Assembly: GCA_963705505.1 (NCBI GenBank)
Contig: CAVPJU010000002.1
Span: forward strand, 1-64,000
Reading direction: 5' to 3'
From: an uncultured bacterium
GTDB lineage: Bacteria; Desulfobacterota_D; UBA1144; Nemesobacterales; UBA2774
DNA length: 64,000 bases
Part shown: piece after piece, positions 48,720 through 60,285 of the stretch
Numbering within the stretch: the stretch's first letter is position 1
How the letters are laid out: the number at the start of each line of letters is the position of its first letter
Position numbers and translations under genes: made by a program
The notes under the pieces: model-generated
Database searches by the model: none
What the model saw: the letters and a program-made list of their open reading frames with translations, nothing else
Told to the model about the DNA's origin: nothing

Positions 48720-49535
48720 ATGTTGAATTATATAAAGATAACTTCAATAGTAGCTTTCCTTATCTTTCTTACCGCGGTTTCTTCAAAAGCGGCGATATTC
48801 GTACAAAACGTATTTTCGAACGTAAATACCAATCCGGTTCCGTTTACACAATCAGTTGTCGACACGCCCACGGGCGGTCCGGGTGACTTCGAAATAATCA
48901 CGTGCGGAACATTTTCAGGCGGCGGAAACACTTTCCTCGCCCCCGGGCCCGACATATTCGATCCGGTTGACCTGGGGAGCTGCGGCAGCGGCTTCGGATG
49001 CATACAGGGAATCTGGTCGAGGTTCGTCGATACACAGGGCGCATCGGAAAATTTCTGTAACTGGACAAACCAGACAAACGTGTTCGGCGCGGGCAGCATA
49101 AGGTGGAGCGGTGTTGACCGGGATAATCCGATCGTTGACGTCGCGTGCAATACGGGTGAAAGTGAGGTCGCAACCGCGCCTTCCGCGGACGCCGAGGAGG
49201 GGTCGTACGTCGCGAGGGTATATACGCTGACTCCCTCACTCGATAACCTGGTCGGCGGAACCGCATTTATAAACGGGGAATTTACCGCAACCGCCGTTTT
49301 AGAATCCCTGGAGCTGGTAGTGCACGGGAAAACCGACCCTGCGGAGGGTGCCGGACCTACGGGCACATCCGATTATTCAATCGAGAGGTTCTCCTCCTGG
49401 AGGGCATGCACTATCGTGCTGAGGGCTGCTCCGACAAATATCCCGACGCTCTCCGAATGGGGGCTCGGCGTATTCGTCGCTCTTACGGGCATAGCGGCTG
49501 TATGGGCGCTAAGAAGGCGGGCTCAGAGGGCTTAG
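48720..49535 (+). CDS. IPTL-CTERM sorting-domain surface protein
   Basis: Signal peptide; Cys-containing body; IPTLSEWG + TM + RRR tail. Confidence 0.9.
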   Translation: MLNYIKITSIVAFLIFLTAVSSKAAIFVQNVFSNVNTNPVPFTQSVVDTPTGGPGDFEIITCGTFSGGGNTFLAPGPDIFDPVDLGSCGSGFGCIQGIWSRFVDTQGASENFCNWTNQTNVFGAGSIRWSGVDRDNPIVDVACNTGESEVATAPSADAEEGSYVARVYTLTPSLDNLVGGTAFINGEFTATAVLESLELVVHGKTDPAEGAGPTGTSDYSIERFSSWRACTIVLRAAPTNIPTLSEWGLGVFVALTGIAAVWALRRRAQRA

Positions 49536-49662: not shown

Positions 49663-50637
49663 TCAAACCGTGCCTTTCGTCCTTATGGACTCGAGCACGG
49701 CGCGGACGTCGTAGAGGTCGTTTACGACTACGGCTTCGATCTCGGCGAGGACCTGAGAGTAACTGTTTCTCGCCCTTCCGCCCACCACGACGGGCAGACC
49801 CGGCAGATACCGTCTTAGTTTTCTCAGCTCCCGCGCAACCAGAGGGTCGCTTTCGGGATAGATCACGCTCAGGATGAGGGCCTTCGAATCATTATACGTC
49901 ACTGTCCCCGCTATCTCCTCGGCAGGGAGGCTCGGCCCGAGATACGTCACATTCCACCCCTCGCTCGCCGCAGTTACTGCCGCAGAGAGCGCCCCGATCT
50001 CGTGCACCTGGTCAGAAGGGGTGGTCACGACAGCATGAGGAGCGCCGGGAAATGTCTTTTGTGAAGCAAGGAGGCTCCCGAGAAAAGTCCTCACGGCCTG
50101 CGTCGCTAAGTGCTCGTGGGATATCCTCAACTCCCCCTTCCGCCAGAGGTCGCCTATCTTCTCCATGGCCGGTATTACGACGTGGTCGAGGAGGGCGTTC
50201 CTCCCCGTCTCGGTCTCTATCGCCAGCATTATCTCTTCGAGGGCCTTACGGTCCATACGCTCGACCGACGAGATGATGCCGTCTATATAGTTATTGTAGT
50301 CCCTGACTATCGACAGATCGCCCGCCTTCAGAGGCTCGACGATCCTTCTCTGAGGGAGGTCTATCACATTCATCCTGTTGACTATGTCCTGAAGCTCTTC
50401 TCTCGAGTACCCGGCAATCTGGCTTATCGGGTATCCCGCCCCTGTCGCCTTCTGGAGCAAAGAGAGCCTCTCGATGTCACCCTCCCCGTAGTATCTCCTG
50501 TTGTTCGAATCCCTCCCGGGCGTAACCACTCCGTACCGCCTCTCCCACGCCCTTATCGCATGCGGGGTGAGACCCGTCATCCTCGAAGCCACCTTCATGG
50601 AAAACTTTCTCTTAACGTCCTCCCGGTTTTCGTGCAT
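49663..50637 (-). CDS. carH: CarH/LitR-type cobalamin-binding MerR-family photoreceptor repressor
   Basis: MerR HTH with RAWERRY; W-x9-EH (WRKGELRISHEH); B12-binding HEIG...YLGP.LP. Confidence 0.88.
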   Translation of the reverse strand: MHENREDVKRKFSMKVASRMTGLTPHAIRAWERRYGVVTPGRDSNNRRYYGEGDIERLSLLQKATGAGYPISQIAGYSREELQDIVNRMNVIDLPQRRIVEPLKAGDLSIVRDYNNYIDGIISSVERMDRKALEEIMLAIETETGRNALLDHVVIPAMEKIGDLWRKGELRISHEHLATQAVRTFLGSLLASQKTFPGAPHAVVTTPSDQVHEIGALSAAVTAASEGWNVTYLGPSLPAEEIAGTVTYNDSKALILSVIYPESDPLVARELRKLRRYLPGLPVVVGGRARNSYSQVLAEIEAVVVNDLYDVRAVLESIRTKGTV

Positions 50638-50644
50638 GGGTATA

Positions 50645-50673
50645 ATCTTAAACCCGTGTCTAACATATGTCAA
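50645..50673 (-). promoter_or_regulatory. sigma70 promoter of carH with operator repeats
   Basis: Minus strand TTGACA-17-TAAGAT; TTGACA and TAGACA 11 bp apart; ATG 7 nt after the -10. Confidence 0.7.
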
Positions 50674-50808
50674 GGTCGAGCCATTATTTAACAGGAAACT
50701 TTCATTTACTTATATCACTCATTTAATAGTGCTATATAACTTCTTCGCATATTGCAATAAAAAAGTTTGAATCGAAATATTTATTCCCTTCGGCAGCGGT
50801 GCTCAAAG

Positions 50809-50878
50809 AAGACAATATTAAAACATATACTTGACATAGGCTAGACAACACATTATTATATTAGACAAATACTAGACA
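50809..50878 (+). promoter_or_regulatory. sigma70 promoter with CarH-type tandem 11-bp operator repeats
   Basis: TTGACA(50831)-17-TATTAT(50854); nnnACA units at 50809, 50820, 50831, 50842, then TAGACA at 50862 and 50873. Confidence 0.8.
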
Positions 50879-51159
50879 GTCATTCAACTTTAGTGATGGG
50901 GTTCAAACCCGGTCGGCGGCCATTGGAAAGGGGGGCAAAAGATTGGATATAGAGCATATGAGAGGAGCTGATTACGACGGGGATTCCCGGCTGAGAAGGC
51001 GGCTACTCGCCATAAATCGGGTAATTCAAGCGGCCGGACAGAGCGGACATACGCCGGGAAGTAAGAAATTCTATAAATTTGGGAACGGGGTGAATCCCGG
51101 CCCTTGTAAATTGAGTCTAAAGGTATATATAAGGAATATAGAGAGAAGCGGGGGGAAAT

Positions 51160-52323
51160 GTGAACATGATGGATAATGAGTTCGACAGAACATTTTACGA
51201 TTCCGGCGATTTCGACGAATCCGATTTTTTTAATACAGTCGGCACGGCGAGGACGCATGGGAGGGGTTCAGCATCTGAAGCCCTGGACAACGTCTACGAG
51301 GCTTTCAGAGGACGAGAGGACAGACAGCCGGTAAAGCCCGGAAAGAAATCGAGGGGCAAGGAAAAGAAATGGACGAGATACGAGGAAGAAAGGGTCCTCC
51401 AGGTCTATTTCAGAGACCTCCTTACGGAGCCGCTGCTGACGCCTGCGGACGAAAAGCAGCTCGGGGCAAAGATAAAGGAATGCGAAAGGAACGCGCGGAA
51501 GATACAGAAGGAGCTCGAGCGCCTGGCGAAACCCAGGCAGAAGGAACTGCCCGCGAGGGACAAGAACAGGCTCGACGTCACGAGGAAGTTATATTCGGAT
51601 AAGGCGCAGGAGCTCAAATCGAAGTTTATAAGGTCCAATCTCAGGCTGGTCGTAAGCATAGCCAAGAGGCACCTCGGCAGGGGGCTTCCGCTGACGGACC
51701 TCGTTCAGGAGGGGAACCTCGGCCTCATAAGGGCTGTCGAGAAGTTCGATCACAGAAAGGGCTTCAAGTTCTCGACGTACGCCGCATGGTGGATACAGCA
51801 GGCCCTCACCAGAGCGATTGCCGAAAAGACGAGGACAATAAAGGTGCCGGTCTACGTGCTCGAGCAGTCGGGCAAGGTCTTCAGGGCGAAGTATGCTCTC
51901 GAGGAGGAGCTCGGAAGAAAACCGCTCCCCGAGGAGATCGCCGAAAAAGCCGGGCTTTCGAGGGAGGTAGTACAGGCGGTCATAGACGGGACCGACAGCG
52001 TGCTCTCGCTCGATAACCCCGTAACCGACGACAACGAAAAGACGTACGTGGACATGATGCCCGACGAGCGCGGGGGACAGGAATCCGCCGTTTCAGAAAT
52101 CAGGGTCAGGAAACTCATCGACGAGTCCCTTTCGTCACTTACACCGAAGGAAGAGGTGGTAGTGAGGATGAGGTACGGCCTCGGCGAGGAAAAGATATAC
52201 ACGCTCGACGAGATCGGGAACAAGTTCGGAGTGACGCGCGAGAGGATAAGGCAGATAGAGAAGAGCGCGCTCGAAAAGATATCGAAGTCCGGGCTCGGCG
52301 AAACGTTGAAAGGATACCTCTAA
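51160..52323 (+). CDS. sigma70-family RpoD/RpoS-like (non-ECF) sigma factor
   Basis: Region 1.2 VYFRDL..PLLT; region 2 NLRLVVSIAK, DLVQEGNLGL, KFSTYAAWWIQQ; region 3; region 4 TLDEIG..FGVTRERIRQIE; start 51160 or 51166. Confidence 0.93.
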   Translation: MNMMDNEFDRTFYDSGDFDESDFFNTVGTARTHGRGSASEALDNVYEAFRGREDRQPVKPGKKSRGKEKKWTRYEEERVLQVYFRDLLTEPLLTPADEKQLGAKIKECERNARKIQKELERLAKPRQKELPARDKNRLDVTRKLYSDKAQELKSKFIRSNLRLVVSIAKRHLGRGLPLTDLVQEGNLGLIRAVEKFDHRKGFKFSTYAAWWIQQALTRAIAEKTRTIKVPVYVLEQSGKVFRAKYALEEELGRKPLPEEIAEKAGLSREVVQAVIDGTDSVLSLDNPVTDDNEKTYVDMMPDERGGQESAVSEIRVRKLIDESLSSLTPKEEVVVRMRYGLGEEKIYTLDEIGNKFGVTRERIRQIEKSALEKISKSGLGETLKGYL

Positions 52324-52361
52324 AACCCGAAAGCCGGATTCGGCTTTAAATCCCAATTACA

Positions 52362-52623
52362 ATGAAAACTAACGAAAAAGCCCGCGTGCTCCTCACCGGA
52401 GCCGCGGGCTGCATAGGCTGAAGGCTCCCACAGGACTCCGGGGCTCCCTCTGCCGGAAGTCCGTTTATCCCCTCCACGAACTCGTATTCGACGGAATGAT
52501 AAGGGCTGTCGCCGGGGAAACGGAGTCGCTCCGGGAAAAAATTTCAGACGCGTAATTTTTAAGTGGAAACGGCGTTCGTTACGGAGTAGAATTGAATCAG
52601 GGCATCCCGCACCGCCGGGCTGA
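52362..52623 (+). pseudogene. Remnant of an NAD(P)-binding SDR/epimerase gene
   Basis: Translates MKTNEKARVLLTGAAGCIG*RL (GxxGxxG); the rest is short and degenerate. Confidence 0.5.
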
Positions 52624-52706
52624 CGTTTACGAGAGAGAATCCGGCACCCGCAGAGGGCGTGCGTCATTTAACCGATATTAATTTCAGGAGGCATGGGAAA
52701 CGGCGG

Positions 52707-54080
52707 ATGATACACGGCAGAACTATTTTCTGGTTCAAGCGGGACCTCAGGACGCACGACAACACCGGGCTCTATCACGCCGTAAGGGACAGCAGGGAAG
52801 TCATCCCTCTCTACATACTCGAGGACTCGATACTGTCGAAGTACCCGCAGGGGAGTAAACGCCTCGGATTCTTCTCGGACGCGCTCTCGAACCTCGACGG
52901 GGAGCTCAGGAGACTCGGCTCGTACCTGCTCGTTCTGAGAGGCAAAGCCGAAGAGATAATCCCCGCCCTCATAAACTCGCAGAGGGTCGAAGCCGTTTAC
53001 ACGAACAGGGCTTACGGCTTCTCGGGGGTCAAGCGGGATCTCGGCGTCGAGCACCAGTGCAGGTTCCACGACACCGTGTTCAAGAAATTCGACGACACGT
53101 TCCTCGTCCCGCCTCACGAGATCGACCAGAGAAAGGTGTTCACCCCGTTTTACAGCATCTGGCAGAGCAAGAGGAAGAGCGAGCCCCTTCCCGCGCCGCA
53201 GAAGATAACCTCCCCTCCCCTCTCGCCCGTATCCGTCGAGAGCCTGACGAGCGAACTCGGCAGCGGTGAGAACAAATACTGGCCGCCCGGATTCCCCGAG
53301 ACGCGGTTGAGAGACTTCAACTTCGCCGATTACTCCCTCACCAGGGACTACCCCTATCTGGACGGCACTTCGAGGCTGTCCCCTTACCTCAGGTTCGGCA
53401 TAGTATCCGTAAGGAAGGTCTACGAGGCCGCCGTCAACGCATGCCCGGAGTCCGACTCGTATATATCCGAGCTCGCATGGAGGGAATTCTGGTACCACAT
53501 CATGCACAACTTCCCCGAGACGAGGGGACTCGAGTTCCAGGAAAAGAGGCGGAACATAAAATGGATAAACAGCGAGAAGTGGTACGACGCATGGCGCGAG
53601 GGACGCACAGGGTACCCGATCGTGGACGCCGGCATGAGACAGCTGAGGGAAGAGGGCTGGATGCACAACCGTGTGCGGATGATCGTCGCGTCTTTCCTCA
53701 CGAAGGACCTGATGACGGACTGGAGGTGGGGAGACAGGCACTTCTTCGAGCATCTGGTGGATTACGACGAGACGGTTGATATAGGGAACTGGCAGTGGTC
53801 CGCTTCATGCGGGGCAGACCCCAAGCCGCTTCGGATATTCAACCCGATGCTGCAATCGCAGAACTACGACCCAGAATGCATATATATCAAGCGGTACATA
53901 CCGGAGCTCTTTTCCATAGACCCCGAGAAAATACACAACCCCCTCACATACAAGCTCCCCTACCACAGGCCCATGGTGAACCACTACGAGATGAGGAACC
54001 TCGCCCACGAGGCTTACTCGGGGGGACGCATCGACGACGAGTACATTTCCCAGATCAAGAAGGACCAGGGTTTTCCGTGA
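52707..54080 (+). CDS. phrB: Deoxyribodipyrimidine photolyase (class I/III CPD type)
   Basis: WFKRDLRTHDN, TSRLSPYLRFG, ELAWREF, GRTGYPIVDAGMRQL, WMHNRVRMIVASFLTK, GNWQW, RIFNP. Confidence 0.93.
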   Translation: MIHGRTIFWFKRDLRTHDNTGLYHAVRDSREVIPLYILEDSILSKYPQGSKRLGFFSDALSNLDGELRRLGSYLLVLRGKAEEIIPALINSQRVEAVYTNRAYGFSGVKRDLGVEHQCRFHDTVFKKFDDTFLVPPHEIDQRKVFTPFYSIWQSKRKSEPLPAPQKITSPPLSPVSVESLTSELGSGENKYWPPGFPETRLRDFNFADYSLTRDYPYLDGTSRLSPYLRFGIVSVRKVYEAAVNACPESDSYISELAWREFWYHIMHNFPETRGLEFQEKRRNIKWINSEKWYDAWREGRTGYPIVDAGMRQLREEGWMHNRVRMIVASFLTKDLMTDWRWGDRHFFEHLVDYDETVDIGNWQWSASCGADPKPLRIFNPMLQSQNYDPECIYIKRYIPELFSIDPEKIHNPLTYKLPYHRPMVNHYEMRNLAHEAYSGGRIDDEYISQIKKDQGFP

Positions 54081-54157
54081 CAACAGCCCCCGCCGGGCGT
54101 CGCTCCCGCAGGCTGTGGTTTTTTTGAGCTATTGGCTACACTAACCTGAGGCGAGAC

Positions 54158-54943
54158 ATGGCTATAAGCGTGCTGATGGCATACGAGCCCCTGGAGAAGA
54201 CGGGGGAGAAATACGGTTACTGGCGGAGCTATATATCCTTTTACGAGAGCTTCAAGGACGGCCCCGCGACCCCCAATTCGGCCTGGTACGGGAGCGAATA
54301 CGACGCCTTCAGGGAATCCCTCTCAAAAGAGCTCGGCATAGAGAAGCGTCTGATAGAGGACTGCTTCTTCATGAAGGACGAGGACGGGAATTACTTCGTC
54401 ACGCCCGTGGGCTCGAGCGCGAACCCCAATATATTCAGCGCCGAGAACTTCATCCCGCTCGAATGGTTCCTCATGTATGACGGGAGCGAAAAGAAATATT
54501 TCTTCACCCACACGGGCTTCGGCGCCATACGCCAGGACGCGGTCTACTACAACACGAAGGTAAGCGCGGCCCTCCGGAGGCTCGGGGAAGCCGTAAGCGA
54601 CATGGACGCTTTTCTCGCCTCGACCCTATCCTCAGGCAGTCCGACTCTTACAGGCGTGCTGAACGACCTCAAATCAGGCGCTGAGAACCTGGCGCACTGG
54701 CTCTCGGGCTTCGACCCGGAGAGCTTCGTTATGCTCAACTACGGCGAGATATGCTCCCGCTTCGACCCCGATTCGATGAAGAACGAGGACTCCGTATCCG
54801 AGCTCAGGCTCGTGCTCACTCTCGCCCGCGAGGGCATCGCAGGTGATGCCGAAAAGGTGCTCGCCATGCTCCTCTCGAAATGGGAAGAGATAAACAGCTC
54901 CTTCACGCCCTCGGAAGAGAAGCGGCCGTCCACGCTCCAGTAA
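54158..54943 (+). CDS. Hypothetical protein
   Basis: Long ORF with host-like codon usage; no recognised motif. Confidence 0.75.
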   Translation: MAISVLMAYEPLEKTGEKYGYWRSYISFYESFKDGPATPNSAWYGSEYDAFRESLSKELGIEKRLIEDCFFMKDEDGNYFVTPVGSSANPNIFSAENFIPLEWFLMYDGSEKKYFFTHTGFGAIRQDAVYYNTKVSAALRRLGEAVSDMDAFLASTLSSGSPTLTGVLNDLKSGAENLAHWLSGFDPESFVMLNYGEICSRFDPDSMKNEDSVSELRLVLTLAREGIAGDAEKVLAMLLSKWEEINSSFTPSEEKRPSTLQ

Positions 54944-55016: not shown

Positions 55017-55196
55017 ATGAGAACCTTTCCGAGACCCATCATAGTGACGAGCATGTGCTTCGAGTTCGACGCCTGCAGATACAACGGTCAGACGATCCCC
55101 AATAATTTCGTCCAGGCTCTCGAGCCGTGGGTCGAATTCAGGCCCGTCTGCCCCGAGCTCGAGATAGGGCTCGGCGTCCCGCGCGACCTGATACTC
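55017..55196 (+). pseudogene. 5' fragment of a DUF523/DUF1722 (YbgA-like) gene
   Basis: SMCFEFDACRYNG...PVCPELEIGLGVPRD (DUF523 N-terminus), then similarity ends. Confidence 0.85.
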
Positions 55197-55403
55197 GAAG
55201 TCCCTCGCGGCAGCGCGGAGGTATATCAGAAGGAGAAGTAGTATTGTCGGGATTATTATTAGATAATAACCTGAATGGACAAACAAAAGCACATCCACAG
55301 ATGGATGTCGGGTACTTGGACATTTTCCTTTAAAGTACCAGACAGTCTCAACCTATTTTACTCGAAGGTGCCGAAGTGATCCGAGAATCTGCAAGACCCC
55401 ACT

Positions 55404-57026
55404 CTATTTCGAGTCCACGGGCTCGATAATGAAATCGGGCGGAGTGAGGCCCACAATGCAATCGATATCAGGCGCGTTAGGCGTCGAGAAGAACGATCTG
55501 ATTACGTCTTGAGCGCAGTCGGACTTTGGCACGACGAAATGACCGACACCGGGAATTACGATGAACACCGAATTCACGAGTGAATTGGCGACACCCTCAG
55601 CCAGAAGCGGCGAGGTGATAGCGTCGTAGCTGCCCGATATGACAAGCGTCGGGATGGGCTTGCCGCTAAGCGTGCGCTGCCTCTCAGGACCCTTCGGGAC
55701 TTTCCAGACGTCGCAAATCTCCGTCATGAATGGAAATTGCGGCGGTTGGGCCAACACCGAGTCCGGAAACGTCGGAAACTGGATTCGCCCCTGCTTGACT
55801 ATATTGTCAGGGGACTCGTAAGGTACCCACTCACTGCAGATAACTCCGTTTTGCAGACCAAAACTAAACTCGCCCTCGTGCGTGACACCCACTATGGCGT
55901 ACAGCGCGAGAACGTCATGCGTCATTCCGCGATCCATCTGGTCAATCAACGCCGGCAGTATGGTAGGAAAGGCTTCCGACAAACCGACCGCAGTGATCTC
56001 AAACGCTCCGCCGTCGACCACGACATGCACAGGCTGAGCATCCGGCGATGGGGGCTGTCCGGGAAATGCCGGTATCACATCACCTTCAGCAGGATTTGAT
56101 TCAAGTTGGTTCACCACTCGTGCGAAAGTATCGCCTATGTTCGAATAGCGATTGTGGCACGCGGGCTGGGCTTCACATTGACGGAAGATCTCATGTAGTC
56201 CTTCTCCAGCATTGGTCCAGAAGTCGCCCATAACGGTGTAAGGGGGTACGACGGAATCTATAGCCACGCTGCGAATGCCTTCGGGATGCTCACGCATGTA
56301 GGTTAGTGCCAGATCAGTACCGTAGGAGACGCCGTACACATTCCATTCCTTGATGCCGAGCGCTTTTCTGAGATCGGCGAAATCGGCTGCGTTCTGTATG
56401 GAATTGTAAGCGCCGAGATCCACTCCCTCAGCCATCAGGCGTTCGTAGCACTCGCGCGACGCATCGACTAACAGTGTGCCGCTCTCATCGCTATCATACC
56501 GCAAACCGACTGTACTCGCCCGGGCGCGATCTGACTCCGGACAAAGGAGAGCCGGATCAGTGAATAACGTCCCCCGCTGATCCATGATTATCAAATCGCG
56601 GTCGCGGTTAATTCCGGCAACTTCAACCAACAGGTCGGCAGACGGGAGAGCCGCACCGCCGGGGCCGCCGACCATATATACGATAGGGTCCGGCGCTGGG
56701 ACTTCAGCTACAGCCGGTATGATTGCTACATTCAGGCGTATCGTCTTCCAATTGTTTTTGTCGCGGTCTTCCGGCACTACCAGCTGACCGCATTTTGCAT
56801 TCTTGAGCGATGATTGCGGGGGATTTAATTGCGGACAGGGACCAGGCTCGAATCTCGCCTCCTGCAGGTTGTTAGATTTGTTACACCCGCCATAAACGAA
56901 AAATGCGATAGCCAGCACAAGTACGCATAGAATTGGAAACCGTGTCCGCCCATCACACATTTTCTTCCGAATTATCACGGAGCGAATACACTCCGCCAAA
57001 CCGAATCTTGACGGATATCGAATCAT
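55404..57026 (-). CDS. Exported alpha/beta hydrolase (TAP-like peptidase), probable lipoprotein
   Basis: GGPGG, DQRG, YGVSYGT, YDAITSP, GVGH; YGGC lipobox; start may be 56960. Confidence 0.88.
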   Translation of the reverse strand: MIRYPSRFGLAECIRSVIIRKKMCDGRTRFPILCVLVLAIAFFVYGGCNKSNNLQEARFEPGPCPQLNPPQSSLKNAKCGQLVVPEDRDKNNWKTIRLNVAIIPAVAEVPAPDPIVYMVGGPGGAALPSADLLVEVAGINRDRDLIIMDQRGTLFTDPALLCPESDRARASTVGLRYDSDESGTLLVDASRECYERLMAEGVDLGAYNSIQNAADFADLRKALGIKEWNVYGVSYGTDLALTYMREHPEGIRSVAIDSVVPPYTVMGDFWTNAGEGLHEIFRQCEAQPACHNRYSNIGDTFARVVNQLESNPAEGDVIPAFPGQPPSPDAQPVHVVVDGGAFEITAVGLSEAFPTILPALIDQMDRGMTHDVLALYAIVGVTHEGEFSFGLQNGVICSEWVPYESPDNIVKQGRIQFPTFPDSVLAQPPQFPFMTEICDVWKVPKGPERQRTLSGKPIPTLVISGSYDAITSPLLAEGVANSLVNSVFIVIPGVGHFVVPKSDCAQDVIRSFFSTPNAPDIDCIVGLTPPDFIIEPVDSK

Positions 57027-57291
57027 CCGAAATTCTTCCTTCTCAAACCTATCATCGAGCGTCCTGTATTCACCCGATAATTAGTCAGATTTCGCTAATT
57101 GTATTATGGAATAATTTGTATGAGTACGGCATCCGATATACCATTTTATTTGTATAATAAACTGTATAATAAACTGATAAACTGATAGACTACTGACTAA
57201 TTATACCTTTGATTTTATTAGGAAGTGTAATTTTTAGCAAGATCCTTGGAAAATCACTGCAATAGATATATATCATTGAATATTATCGCCC

Positions 57292-57535
57292 GCCGGACTC
57301 GACTGGGAGGAGCATGTGAGGATCGACCCCCGTTATTTCAGACCCGTGGATTCGAAGGGCATAGGGCGGACTCTACGAGGGCGAATAGCGAACACCGATG
57401 GGAGCCCCGGATAAGGCTCAGGGAGCTTTTAGGGATAAGTGTTGACTCGGACATGATGGCTCAACCACCGAAGCCGCCTGTGGAAGGGGAGAGCGTGCTC
57501 TTGGAGAGGTTCCCCGCGAGATAATGGAAAACCGG
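57292..57535 (+). pseudogene. gmd: 3' remnant of GDP-mannose 4,6-dehydratase
   Basis: AGLDWEEHVRIDPRYFRP, frameshift, ADSTRA...WEPRIRLRELL..VDSDM. Confidence 0.7.
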
Positions 57536-57769
57536 GTGAGCAAGCCATCGTCGAGAACCCGAAGGCCCTGTTTTCATGGTCCAGGTTGGTTGTCAAGATA
57601 GTTGCGTTCCCCGCCCACTTTTTTCTCTCACGTATCATTCCCAGAATTAAATGCTTAATCGATGGACAATTTATTCTCTTTTCTTGTATTAATTGTGTCT
57701 ATAATTGTATGATTGAAGCTAATGGCGATACCGATGTATTTCTTACGAAGACAATTTCCGGAGATGTTT

Positions 57770-59209
57770 ATGAAGGGGATACTAAGCATTTTTCTAATTA
57801 TATTGCTTATTACGGCATGCGACGACAGCGGTAATGTGCATGATTGTTTCAGTGCGGATGATTTTCAGGGCGCGGATTGTCTAGCTGAAGCCATGCTAAA
57901 TTCGTGCAGCAGCATAGGCTGCAGCTCCAGGGATGCGGAATTGACGCCGCCGCTCTCACCTATTTGCAAAAAAGTCAATTGTTCATCTTTCGATTGCAAT
58001 GAAGTCTTGTACACAACCGATGGAGAGACTTTCACCGCACCGGGAACTATTACGAATCTGCACCTTGAGAATACAGGGGAGCTCGGAGGAGTCATAACTG
58101 TTGGGGGAAAGGAGCAGAAAATTGAATGCGCAGTAGACACCGGACCTGCGCCATCGACCGCAGTCATAGCCACTCCCATACATGATGCGCTCGCCGTACC
58201 CGGCGATGACGGAATGATCCATGTCGAATACGACCTGCTCTTTACCAACACATTTGCGTCTCCCGTAACGCTTAAGACTATCGACGTCACCGATATTTCG
58301 GGCACTCTTCTGATGCGCTTAGAAGGTGCACGGCTCTCAGCAGCGACTCAGAATGTGTTCGATCAAAAGGTCATTTCGGAGATACCGGCGTCGGGCTCTG
58401 CCGCAGTCGAGGTAGACCTGATTCTCAAACCAGGAACGGTTCCAGAACGATTATCCCACCGTATCGTTTATGACTTCTTGGACCAGGACCGGTCTGCGGC
58501 AGCCATCTCTTCGCGGGAATTCACTGGCCCCGAGCTTATGGTGGACCCACGCGAGCCGCAACAAATCATATCCCCGGTCTCGGGAACGGAATGGGCATCG
58601 TTTAACGGCTGCTGCACTCCGAACCGGCACCGCGATACGAGAATTGGGGCGGGCACGCGCATCGCCACGGCTGAAACATTCGATATAGACTGGCTCAAGC
58701 TGGAAAACGGTCGGTTGTTCAGCGGTGACGGTTCCGAGAACACGGATTACTTCTGCTTCGGCGCGCCGATCGTCTCGGCCACGGACGGCATTGTAGTCGA
58801 CGCCCGCGACGGTGTGCCGGACAGCATTCCGAATATACCTCCGACTAACATACACACTCCTAGGGATTTCAGCGGCAACTTCGTCGTAGTTCGTGTACGA
58901 CCGAAGGTTTATGCCATTTATGCGCATCTTGAATTAGGCTCGGTCACCGTCAAGATCGGGGATATCGTTAAGGCGGGAACGCTCTTAGGCAGACTCGGAA
59001 GCTCCGGGAATTCCACAGCGCCTCATCTGCATTTTGGGATAGTAGATCAGCAGGACCCGACTACGGCGAACAGCCTGCCGTTCGTGATAGACAACTTCGA
59101 ACTTACCGGAATAATCACAGGAGACGAAAACAACCTGAATATTCAGCCGGTCTCCCGTTCGGTTACGGACGCATACCCGCTCGTTCTGGGTGTAGCGACA
59201 TTCAAGTGA
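57770..59209 (+). CDS. M23-family metallopeptidase lipoprotein with Cys-rich N-terminus
   Basis: ITAC lipobox; FDIDW, GNFVV, YAHL, GSSGNSTAPHLHF. Confidence 0.88.
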   Translation: MKGILSIFLIILLITACDDSGNVHDCFSADDFQGADCLAEAMLNSCSSIGCSSRDAELTPPLSPICKKVNCSSFDCNEVLYTTDGETFTAPGTITNLHLENTGELGGVITVGGKEQKIECAVDTGPAPSTAVIATPIHDALAVPGDDGMIHVEYDLLFTNTFASPVTLKTIDVTDISGTLLMRLEGARLSAATQNVFDQKVISEIPASGSAAVEVDLILKPGTVPERLSHRIVYDFLDQDRSAAAISSREFTGPELMVDPREPQQIISPVSGTEWASFNGCCTPNRHRDTRIGAGTRIATAETFDIDWLKLENGRLFSGDGSENTDYFCFGAPIVSATDGIVVDARDGVPDSIPNIPPTNIHTPRDFSGNFVVVRVRPKVYAIYAHLELGSVTVKIGDIVKAGTLLGRLGSSGNSTAPHLHFGIVDQQDPTTANSLPFVIDNFELTGIITGDENNLNIQPVSRSVTDAYPLVLGVATFK

Positions 59210-59269
59210 GACGAGTCGAAGCTAAAAAAATGCTTTCGAGGATGTTCGACGAAAACGAGTTCCTAAGTG

Positions 59270-59308
59270 TGACCTGCCCCCGTTAATAGGTCCATAGATT
59301 AAGTTAGA
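59270..59308 (+). mobile_element. Isolated IS3-family (IS407-like) terminal inverted repeat
   Basis: TGACCTGCCCCCGTTAATAGGTCCA resembles IS407-group ends (recalled, not searched); no transposase follows. Confidence 0.5.
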
Positions 59309-59419
59309 TCTTCGAAAGAGATCCCCATATAAAGGAGCTCATCGGAATAGTTCGATCGGCCTTAACGCATACGTTTCAGTAGCTGTTCATATACGAAGTC
59401 ACAGATATTAAATCACCTC

Positions 59420-59441
59420 AGTTTTATGCGAGTTTTATGCG
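59420..59441. repeat. Tandem 11-bp repeat, possible integrase arm site
   Basis: AGTTTTATGCG x2, followed by AAAATAAG x2. Confidence 0.6.
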
Positions 59442-59616
59442 GAAAATAAGCAAAAATAAGTAAACTAGCTGGTTTCAAAAACCTCAAAACCCTAATGTTT
59501 CGCTTTTATAATACGTCTAATAAAGTGTGTCAAGACTCAGTAACGAAACAATATTTTGATCGAAAATCTAACAAAATCTATAGGTTCTGAAATCGCTAAA
59601 ACAAGTGATCAGTTTA

Positions 59617-60285
59617 ATACTCAAGAGCCGCTCCCCATCGTGCGGAATAAAGGACGCGAAGGAATTCCCCGACGCGGAGAACGAGATAGCGACGGGCAAG
59701 GGCGCGGGAATCTTCGCCGAAAGGGTCATGTCAAAATTCCCCGGACTCGCGGTCGAGGACGAGGGGAGACTCAGGAACTTCAGGATAAGGGAGCACTTCC
59801 TGACCAAGCTCTACACGCTCGCGAGCTTCAGAGGAGTGAAAAAGGCGGGGAGCGCCAATGCCCTCGTGAACTTCCATACGGAGAACAAGTTTCTGCTCAT
59901 GTCATACAGCGGGAAGGAGATGAGGGCATTAGGCAGAATAACCGCGAATGCGGAAGGGAAACGCCCGGAAATATTGATCGCCGAGTACGGCGAGGGTCTT
60001 CGGCATGCGCTCGCGTCCCCGCAGAGGAGGTCCTCAGGCATAAACGTCCTCATGCATGCGCTCGGATATTTCTCGGACAGGCTCACCGGGAGGGAGAAGG
60101 CCTATTTCCTCGACCTCCTGGAGGCGTACAGGAACGAGAGGATACCGCTCAGCGCCGTACTTGCCGTGCTTGAGTCCTGGGTGATCAAGTACGATGAGGA
60201 TTACCTCGCGCGCCAGACCTTCTTCGAGCCTTATCCGAAGGAGCTGATGGAGATCTCAGACTCCGGCAAGGGGCGGGAGGTGTAA
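59617..60285 (+). pseudogene. 3' fragment of the DUF523/DUF1722 (YbgA-like) gene
   Basis: ILKSRSPSCG, G.GIFA, VEDEGRL, FHTENK, NVLMHALGYF, YLARQTFFEPYP. Confidence 0.88.

Follow-up and report, generated by a model that had tools for sequence, protein, structure and literature searches.

A CarH-like gene paired with a group-2-type sigma factor in Dadabacteria suggests a two-step light switch

Introduction

In a 64,000-nucleotide stretch of DNA from an uncultured bacterium (GenBank assembly GCA_963705505.1, contig CAVPJU010000002.1, positions 1 to 64,000; hereafter, the window), we found a gene for a CarH-like sensor (carH) that is divergent from the gene for a group-2-type sigma70 factor, with CarH-type direct repeats over the promoters of both. 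We propose that CarH directly represses the sigma operon, and from the sequence comparisons below we put the probability of this at roughly three in four. The logic of such a circuit is known from LitR-LitS of Streptomyces; what is new here is that the sigma factor is group-2-type, that the operator is split, and that a carotenoid output is missing. The CarH/LitR proteins characterized so far control genes for carotenoids or photorepair, either directly or via an extracytoplasmic function (ECF) sigma factor.

The host genome (G000, 2.88 Mb, 93.6% complete; the window is its contig C2) belongs to a lineage that we treat as Dadabacteria, and we grouped its relatives into families f1, f2, and f5 to f9 and genera g1 to g4. 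Our comparison panel comprises 120 genomes, of which 41 (40 relatives and G000) have a CarH match at E 1e-15.

A CarH-like gene lies opposite a sigma factor

The central features of the locus are as follows:

49663–50637, minus strand: carH-like gene, 324 amino acids (aa), MerR-type DNA-binding domain and B12-binding domain
50645–50673, minus strand: predicted carH promoter (−35 at 50673–50668, −10 ending at 50645), carrying a pair of TWGACA repeats spaced by 11 bp and a third, degenerate one
50831–50878, plus strand: predicted sigma-operon promoter, matching 11 of 12 positions of the sigma70 consensus with a 17-bp spacer, with TWGACA repeats at offsets 0, 11, 31, and 42
51083–51135, plus strand: hairpin and conserved promoter-like element without operator, just before the sigma gene; present in g1 and g4, including genomes that lost carH
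51166–52323, plus strand: group-2-type sigma70 paralog, about 385 aa, regions 1.2, 2, 3, and 4

A preliminary description of this DNA had recognized a CarH/LitR-like gene by its RAWERRY and W-x9-EH motifs and its B12-binding histidine, and this identification was borne out. The product matches Pfam MerR_1, B12-binding_2, and B12-binding; RAWERRY, W165-x9-E175-H176, and H212 line up with CarH of T. thermophilus (where the counterparts are W131, E141, H142, and H177; PMC11796333); and the best Foldseek match of its AlphaFold model (mean predicted local distance difference test score of 84.5) is the structure 5C8D (E 1.9e-16). Two features of Class I CarH/LitR are present, namely RxWERRY in the MerR-type DNA-binding domain and, as defined in PMC9304148, Wx9EH (W165, E175, and H176). 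Within the longer motif D/ExHx2G/Px41SxT/Vx22-27GG, H212, G215, S257, and G286-G287 are correctly spaced, with Q210 in place of D/E and I259 in place of T/V. Because of the motif deviations and a score far under the NCBIfam cut-off (see below), we call the protein CarH-like: by its sequence, its membership of Class I CarH/LitR is unproven.

The most likely start of carH is ATG 50637. We prefer it over TTG 50673 because the latter is at the first base of carH's own −35 box. The ATG lies 7 nt past the −10 box (6–7 nt in several relatives and 6–9 nt in many genomes), which suggests that the carH mRNA is probably leaderless and that this trait is conserved. G000 encodes an adenosyltransferase (PF01923), four methylmalonyl-CoA mutase matches, and a cobalamin riboswitch, so it handles adenosylcobalamin (AdoB12).

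The four-region sigma70 factor of the preliminary description was also recovered. Pfam matches cover regions 2, 3, and 4; region 1.2, which did not reach E 0.001 in Pfam, is visible in an alignment with E. coli RpoD and RpoS, in which the protein has no region 1.1 and has RpoD-like motifs in regions 2.3–2.4 and 4.2. Group 2 sigma70 factors have regions 1.2, 2, 3, and 4 without region 1.1, carry RpoD-like 2.3–2.4 and 4.2 motifs, and are non-essential. The sigma scores below the cut-offs of the RpoD equivalogs (288 vs. 555 and 271 vs. 354 bits) and of the RpoS equivalogs (253 vs. 378.7 and 246 vs. 394 bits), and in our trees it falls outside the RpoS branch. The RpoD of G000 is a separate gene (C6:810798) that is directly after dnaG and groups with E. 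coli RpoD, so the sigma is not the housekeeping RpoD. We classify the window's sigma by these features as group-2-type, neither RpoD nor RpoS, and the suggested resemblance to RpoS is thus not upheld.

G000 has 26 matches to sigma region 2, of which 11 are long RpoD-like proteins. Ten RpoD-like paralogs, including the window's sigma, form a Dadabacteria-specific clade apart from RpoD and RpoS (support of 100/100 and 97/96 in two trees, which used 43 of 80 rows and 30 rows, with no cyanobacterial sequences). The CarH-linked sigmas of five families are on one side of a branch with support of 79/98 in one tree and are unresolved in the 30-row tree. A single origin of these sigmas is allowed by their sequences but not shown.

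The number of RpoD-like sigma matches varies across the lineage: there are up to 11 in many f1 and f7 genomes, 1–2 in most f6 and f8 genomes, and about 3 in f9, and 36 of the 37 f8 genomes have a single long match. Group-2-type sigmas have undergone lineage-specific expansion.

CarH-type repeats overlie both promoters

CarH operators consist of an 11-bp repeat, nnnnTnnACAn, that overlaps the −35 and −10 boxes (PMC9304148), and the repeats in the window fit it. (The preliminary description did not mention them.) On the carH side, the repeats would form an autoregulatory operator. On the sigma side, the operator is split 2+2, with a pair of repeats on each side of the −10 box and the pairs 20 bp apart, and the promoter it overlies is the top sigma70 match within the 11 kb scanned. 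The strict pair TWGACA-N5-TWGACA occurs three times in G000, and two copies overlap −35 boxes. The count alone is unremarkable (3 in the 2.88-Mb genome vs. 1–2 in five local shuffles). What goes beyond chance is that all three pairs are on two −35 boxes, between carH and sigma and within about 220 bp, at offsets that are fixed in relatives. No second CarH operator, in strict or split form, was found in G000.

We compared 23 intergenic regions (22 from relatives and the window). The carH-side pair at offsets 0 and 11 is present in 22 of them, with a variable third repeat at 22. The sigma-side 0/11 pair is on the −35 box in canonical form in 19; of these 19, 17 also have strict TnnACA at offsets 31 and 42, and none has it at 22, 33, or 44. 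Searching the 120 genomes for the four-repeat pattern, with one mismatch allowed and the reversed pattern as a control, gave exactly one match in each of 20 genomes, all of which bear CarH, and always beside carH. There were no matches in the 79 genomes without a CarH match and none for the reversed control. The CarH genomes without the pattern number 21: three whose contigs are cut at carH, G031, G023, G036, G038, and 14 of f9. It counts against this result that the pattern was taken from the same genomes, so that the search is partly circular, and that related genomes are not independent; the informative aspects are therefore the uniqueness and the absence of the pattern.

The pairing is conserved across families

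The preliminary description had suggested a synteny search for carH with a non-ECF sigma, and we observed that this arrangement is conserved in five families. Neither of its two refuting conditions that concern the sequence, a sigma that is the sole housekeeping RpoD and a synteny that is not conserved, therefore applies. A long sigma gene faces away from carH in 34 of the 40 CarH-bearing relatives: f1 contributes 19 of its 23 genomes, f9 contributes 12 of its 14, and f2, f5, and f7 contribute one each. In the other six the contig ends first. A second, distant MerR homolog in G024 (L055) has no adjacent sigma. The recurrent neighbors of the pair are photolyase, fasciclin, short-chain dehydrogenase/reductase (SDR)-DUF2867, and DUF523/1722 genes. 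The stretch from sigma to phr in the window contains the following:

52362–52549, plus strand: deletion remnant of SDR-DUF2867 (483–488 aa in relatives), between sigma and phr
52563–52592, plus strand: conserved promoter-like element without operator, upstream of phr; its strict form is unique in G000
52707–54080, plus strand: photolyase-family gene phr, 457 aa from ATG 52707

The photolyase after sigma stands as first described: phr matches Pfam DNA_photolyase and FAD_binding_7, and its best NCBIfam models are those of deoxyribodipyrimidine photolyase, below their cut-offs. Photolyase follows sigma in 17 of 19 f1 loci and was not seen in the stretches that were fetched for f2, f5, f7, and f9; in the last three of these families, its place is taken by DUF1731-type epimerase and pdxH genes. 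(In G000, an epimerase-pdxH pair of this type lies elsewhere, at L192:6249-7802, without a CarH operator.) In 13 of 22 related loci, fasciclin is between the operator and sigma as the first gene (in L051 it is second, after a DUF4397 gene). The wider gene order (major facilitator superfamily [MFS], von Willebrand factor A [vWA], and trpS genes) is also conserved in f1, and the surroundings differ in g3, f2, f5, f7, and f9. Four genomes (G017, G020, G025, and G027; 97, 98, 77, and 59% complete) still have sigma and phr together at this locus, with no full-length CarH by profile search and no repeats.

Beyond the phylum, we surveyed the best 80 of 595 metagenome CarH loci by BLAST with a query set of sigma sequences. 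A long sigma is beside carH in at least 4 of these 80 (L112, L115, and L128, of Dadabacteria type, and L137) and an ECF sigma in at least 7; both counts are lower bounds because many of the loci are short and the ECF query set is small. L137 (2519-5926) is from another lineage: carH is followed on the same strand by a 276-aa non-ECF sigma, which is outside the Dadabacteria clade on a long branch, and TGACA repeats precede both genes. We left L139, in which an RpoD-like gene is convergent with carH at a distance of about 2 kb, out of the count.

The CarH-like proteins of f9 (L072–L086) retain their position opposite a sigma of 329–339 aa, and TGACA-like repeats, but lack both B12 histidines. 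In 12 f9 loci (L073:9650-9790 and others), a small basic open reading frame, about 45 codons long and conserved at its C-terminal end, lies between sigma and an SRPBCC-epimerase gene.

A proposed mechanism and its rivals

Our proposal is a light switch that works in two steps, like LitR-LitS, and that uses a group-2-type sigma. Without light, CarH loaded with AdoB12 would occupy the 11-bp direct repeats at two back-to-back RpoD-type promoters, and would repress both its own gene and the strong promoter from which (fasciclin)-sigma-(SDR-DUF2867)-phr is transcribed. At the split operator, CarH would most likely bind through two pairs of DNA-binding domains, with the −10 box between the pairs. 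In the light, the Co-C bond would be cleaved, CarH would leave the DNA, and sigma would be made. The sequences show the identities of the genes, the synteny, the repeats, and that the repeats co-occur with carH; repeat recognition, dark repression, and photolysis are carried over from established knowledge of CarH; the binding mode, the induction of sigma, and its targets are what we infer for this locus. Because sigma retains RpoD-like DNA-recognition motifs, it should compete with RpoD and the paralogs for core polymerase at sigma70-like promoters. It would probably raise the expression of a limited number of photoprotection genes; the first candidate targets are the phr promoter, which has no operator, and the proximal element of sigma itself.

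Several observations weigh against this proposal. In the sensor, Q210 instead of D/E is invariant in 21 Dadabacteria rows and 2 others. The SignatureFinder signature for light response (GxxW, EH, GxxH, and GxxxP; PMC11796333) is incomplete, with three of its four elements present and DxxH for GxxH: D209 occupies the position of the glycine, and GxxH is kept in L049–L051. The NCBIfam CarH equivalog NF052513, although it is the best model, scores 102.6 bits against a cut-off of 400, and the histidine after the tryptophan in T. thermophilus CarH is R166 here. At the alignment positions that we take to correspond to them, the Arg-Asp dimer pair of T. thermophilus CarH is not kept and one of the two interface glycines is kept. 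(PMC9304148 describes the pair and the glycines in CarH.) All 7 of the f9 CarH-like proteins that we aligned (7 of 15 loci) are without both B12 histidines, and f9 nonetheless retains the pairing. CobS was not found in G000 (93.6% complete), so B12 probably must be scavenged. At the locus, a hairpin precedes sigma in most f1 loci and may dampen read-through; promoter-like elements without operators, before sigma in g1 and g4 and before phr, could make both genes partly CarH-independent; and the four genomes described above retain sigma without CarH.

Some of these points would fit a different reading, in which the real targets of CarH are fasciclin and the photoprotection operon, and sigma is a passenger that is transcribed mainly from its own proximal promoter at a level that light changes little. 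In favor of this reading, 13 of 22 related loci have fasciclin, and after it the hairpin, ahead of sigma; g1 and g4 have the conserved operator-free element; and sigma persists in the four carH-less genomes. Also, in loci from outside of Dadabacteria, the gene opposite carH is often fasciclin or SDR-DUF2867, and a long sigma is absent (L069 and L071). The preliminary description had named sigma, as a group 1/2-type factor, the direct target of CarH. Its type and the CarH-type repeats over the operon promoter agree with that claim; in the loci just mentioned, the first gene behind the operator is fasciclin rather than sigma. However, in the window and most of g1, fasciclin is gone and the full operator is kept in front of sigma; sigma is the first gene opposite carH in f5, f7, and f9; and it is the only partner that is common to all five families. 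We consider the passenger reading unlikely. Slightly less likely still is that the repressor controls the sigma operon but senses something other than AdoB12 photolysis, such as B12 availability or redox state, or that it acts independently of B12, as CarA does. The substitutions at residues 209–210 of the B12 motif, the f9 orthologs that keep the arrangement without both histidines, and the scarcity of phytoene synthase (no match in G000 and a match in 1 of 32 other f1 genomes) could be understood in this way, but W-x9-EH and the lower histidine are intact, an intact Wx9EH separates CarH from CarA (PMC9304148), and a photolyase follows sigma in most f1 loci.

At the far end, the repeats could be merely −35 boxes and AT-rich chance matches, with the pairing an inherited gene order that has no regulatory meaning. 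The first repeat of each array is indeed the −35 hexamer itself, shuffled genomes do yield 1–2 strict pairs, and the order of MFS, vWA, and trpS is likewise conserved in f1. This seems very improbable, as the two repeats past the −10 box, at offsets 31 and 42, are conserved between spacers of varying sequence, the repeats are lost together with carH, and the carH-sigma pair persists in different chromosomal surroundings in g3, f2, f5, f7, and f9. Direct repression of the sigma operon by CarH is thus the reading that we carry forward.

Candidate targets of the sigma factor

Of 24 sigma-to-phr regions, 18 have the conserved promoter-like element that precedes phr, and it persists in carH-less genomes. 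Five of the six regions without it have phr inside the operon, and genus g2 has a different sigma70-like element before the gene that precedes phr. The phr element is a candidate target of the window's sigma or of RpoD, and the same could hold for the sigma-proximal element, a putative promoter, which has one strict match in G000 (its own site) and six scattered matches in a loose form. We rejected TGAATC of the sigma-proximal element as an alternative −35 box: it is part of the hairpin, which has counterparts after fasciclin in other genera.

Neither element led to a regulon motif in G000. A regulon built on the phr element was rejected because a pattern search of G000 gave no more matches than shuffles did (strict, 1 vs. 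1–2; relaxed, 7 vs. 14–25; looser, 49 vs. 107–136). Phytoene synthase (PF00494) was not found in G000, which is 93.6% complete, and was found in 8 of the 120 genomes. The preliminary description had expected light to reprogram transcription broadly. We do not adopt this expectation, given the null search for a regulon motif, the promoter-like elements without operators before sigma and phr, the loci with fasciclin first, and the four genomes that keep sigma without carH. In its fullest form, light, sensed by one type of B12 molecule, would swap an RpoD-like sigma into RNA polymerase and shift a large part of the transcriptome without carotenoid output, in a one-step circuit from photoreceptor to global sigma that has a split 2+2 CarH operator and is old enough to be phylum-wide. 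We regard this as doubtful. If it were true, the circuit would be kept even in streamlined genomes of 1 Mb whose sensor has lost its B12 ligands.

The sole fasciclin match in G000 (C6:321266-323309) comes after genes for an ECF sigma and for a protein whose sequence looks cupin-type and anti-sigma-like, and this locus is possibly a second branch of the response to light or oxidative stress.

Comparison with known light switches

The closest parallel is LitR-LitS of Streptomyces, in which an AdoB12-dependent MerR-type repressor acts on bidirectional promoters for its own gene and a sigma, and light releases the sigma (PMC11519972). Divergent repressor and sigma genes with bidirectional promoters are also found here. 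LitS, as described in the accessible text, belongs to the ECF sigmas, has a promoter consensus of its own, and drives crtE, whereas the window's sigma has regions 1.2–4 and RpoD-like motifs; also, a search of G000 for phytoene synthase found none, and the target promoters named above are candidates. The sensor resembles Class I CarH (T. thermophilus, B. megaterium, and Myxococcales; PDB 5C8D/5C8E), in the accessible accounts, in its domain layout, RxWERRY, Wx9EH, lower histidine, and 11-bp TnnACA repeats over −35/−10. It differs in the Q for D/E in the B12 motif and in that its putative targets are not carotenoid genes. The CarH operators described in the accessible part of PMC9304148 are tandem runs of three or four repeats, or of one to two with flanking pseudorepeats, unlike the two pairs 20 bp apart on the sigma side.

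As for the sigma, the cyanobacterial group 2 factors SigB and SigD are likewise non-essential RpoD-like paralogs, which act in high light and oxidative stress (PMC7760821). A B12 photoreceptor is linked to the sigma here and none is mentioned for SigB/SigD in the accessible part of that paper, and the Dadabacteria clade was placed against RpoD and RpoS rows only. In Pseudomonas, a class II LitR, whose B12 domain is not complete and which a LOV (light, oxygen, or voltage) protein controls, has photolyase among its light-induced genes. The association of a LitR-family repressor with photolyase is similar, but the accessible account describes no sigma step (PMC9758184). A full-text literature search, with most subscription papers outside its reach, found no description of CarH with a group 1/2 sigma or of CarH in Dadabacteria.

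The likely target of this CarH is a sigma that is expected to read housekeeping-like promoters, in a lineage mostly without a phytoene synthase match. The pairing would give a first functional handle on one of the roughly ten unexplained RpoD-like paralogs of Dadabacteria, and the split operator makes a testable prediction about the geometry of the CarH oligomer. The lineage also provides natural controls, namely genomes without the sensor and genomes whose sensor lost the histidines. Finally, the compact repressor-promoter pair, with its 11 of 12 consensus positions, might be put to use in E. coli as a switch for green light.

Other genes at the locus

Further features downstream of phr in the window are:

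54106–54126, plus strand: terminator-like hairpin with a T run, after phr
54158–54943, plus strand: orphan gene of 261 aa, conserved, and the next gene after phr in most f1 loci
55017–55214, plus strand: N-terminal piece of DUF523/DUF1722
59587–60285, plus strand: C-terminal piece of DUF523/DUF1722

The DUF523/DUF1722 gene that had been noted further on is present, but it is split into two pieces by about 4.3 kb (55240–59586) that carry alpha/beta hydrolase and M23 peptidase genes. Part of its middle is apparently missing in the window; relatives have an intact gene of about 322 aa.

The 261-aa orphan protein has no Pfam or NCBIfam family, no usable Atlas match, and nothing in Foldseek at E 0.001, and its best Z in VIA is 4.7; this does not show that its fold is new. 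A paralog with 41% identity (L190:5361-6122) immediately precedes a further long sigma paralog, and the gene after that sigma looks endonuclease III-like by its sequence, so the orphan family may partner long sigma paralogs. In G009 (L035:12550-14337), the orphan and DUF523/DUF1722 form one 596-aa frame, by fusion or a lost stop codon. On the other side of the locus, just downstream of carH, there are tandem IPTL-CTERM genes (48720–49535 in the window; L031–L047) whose number varies from 0 to 4.

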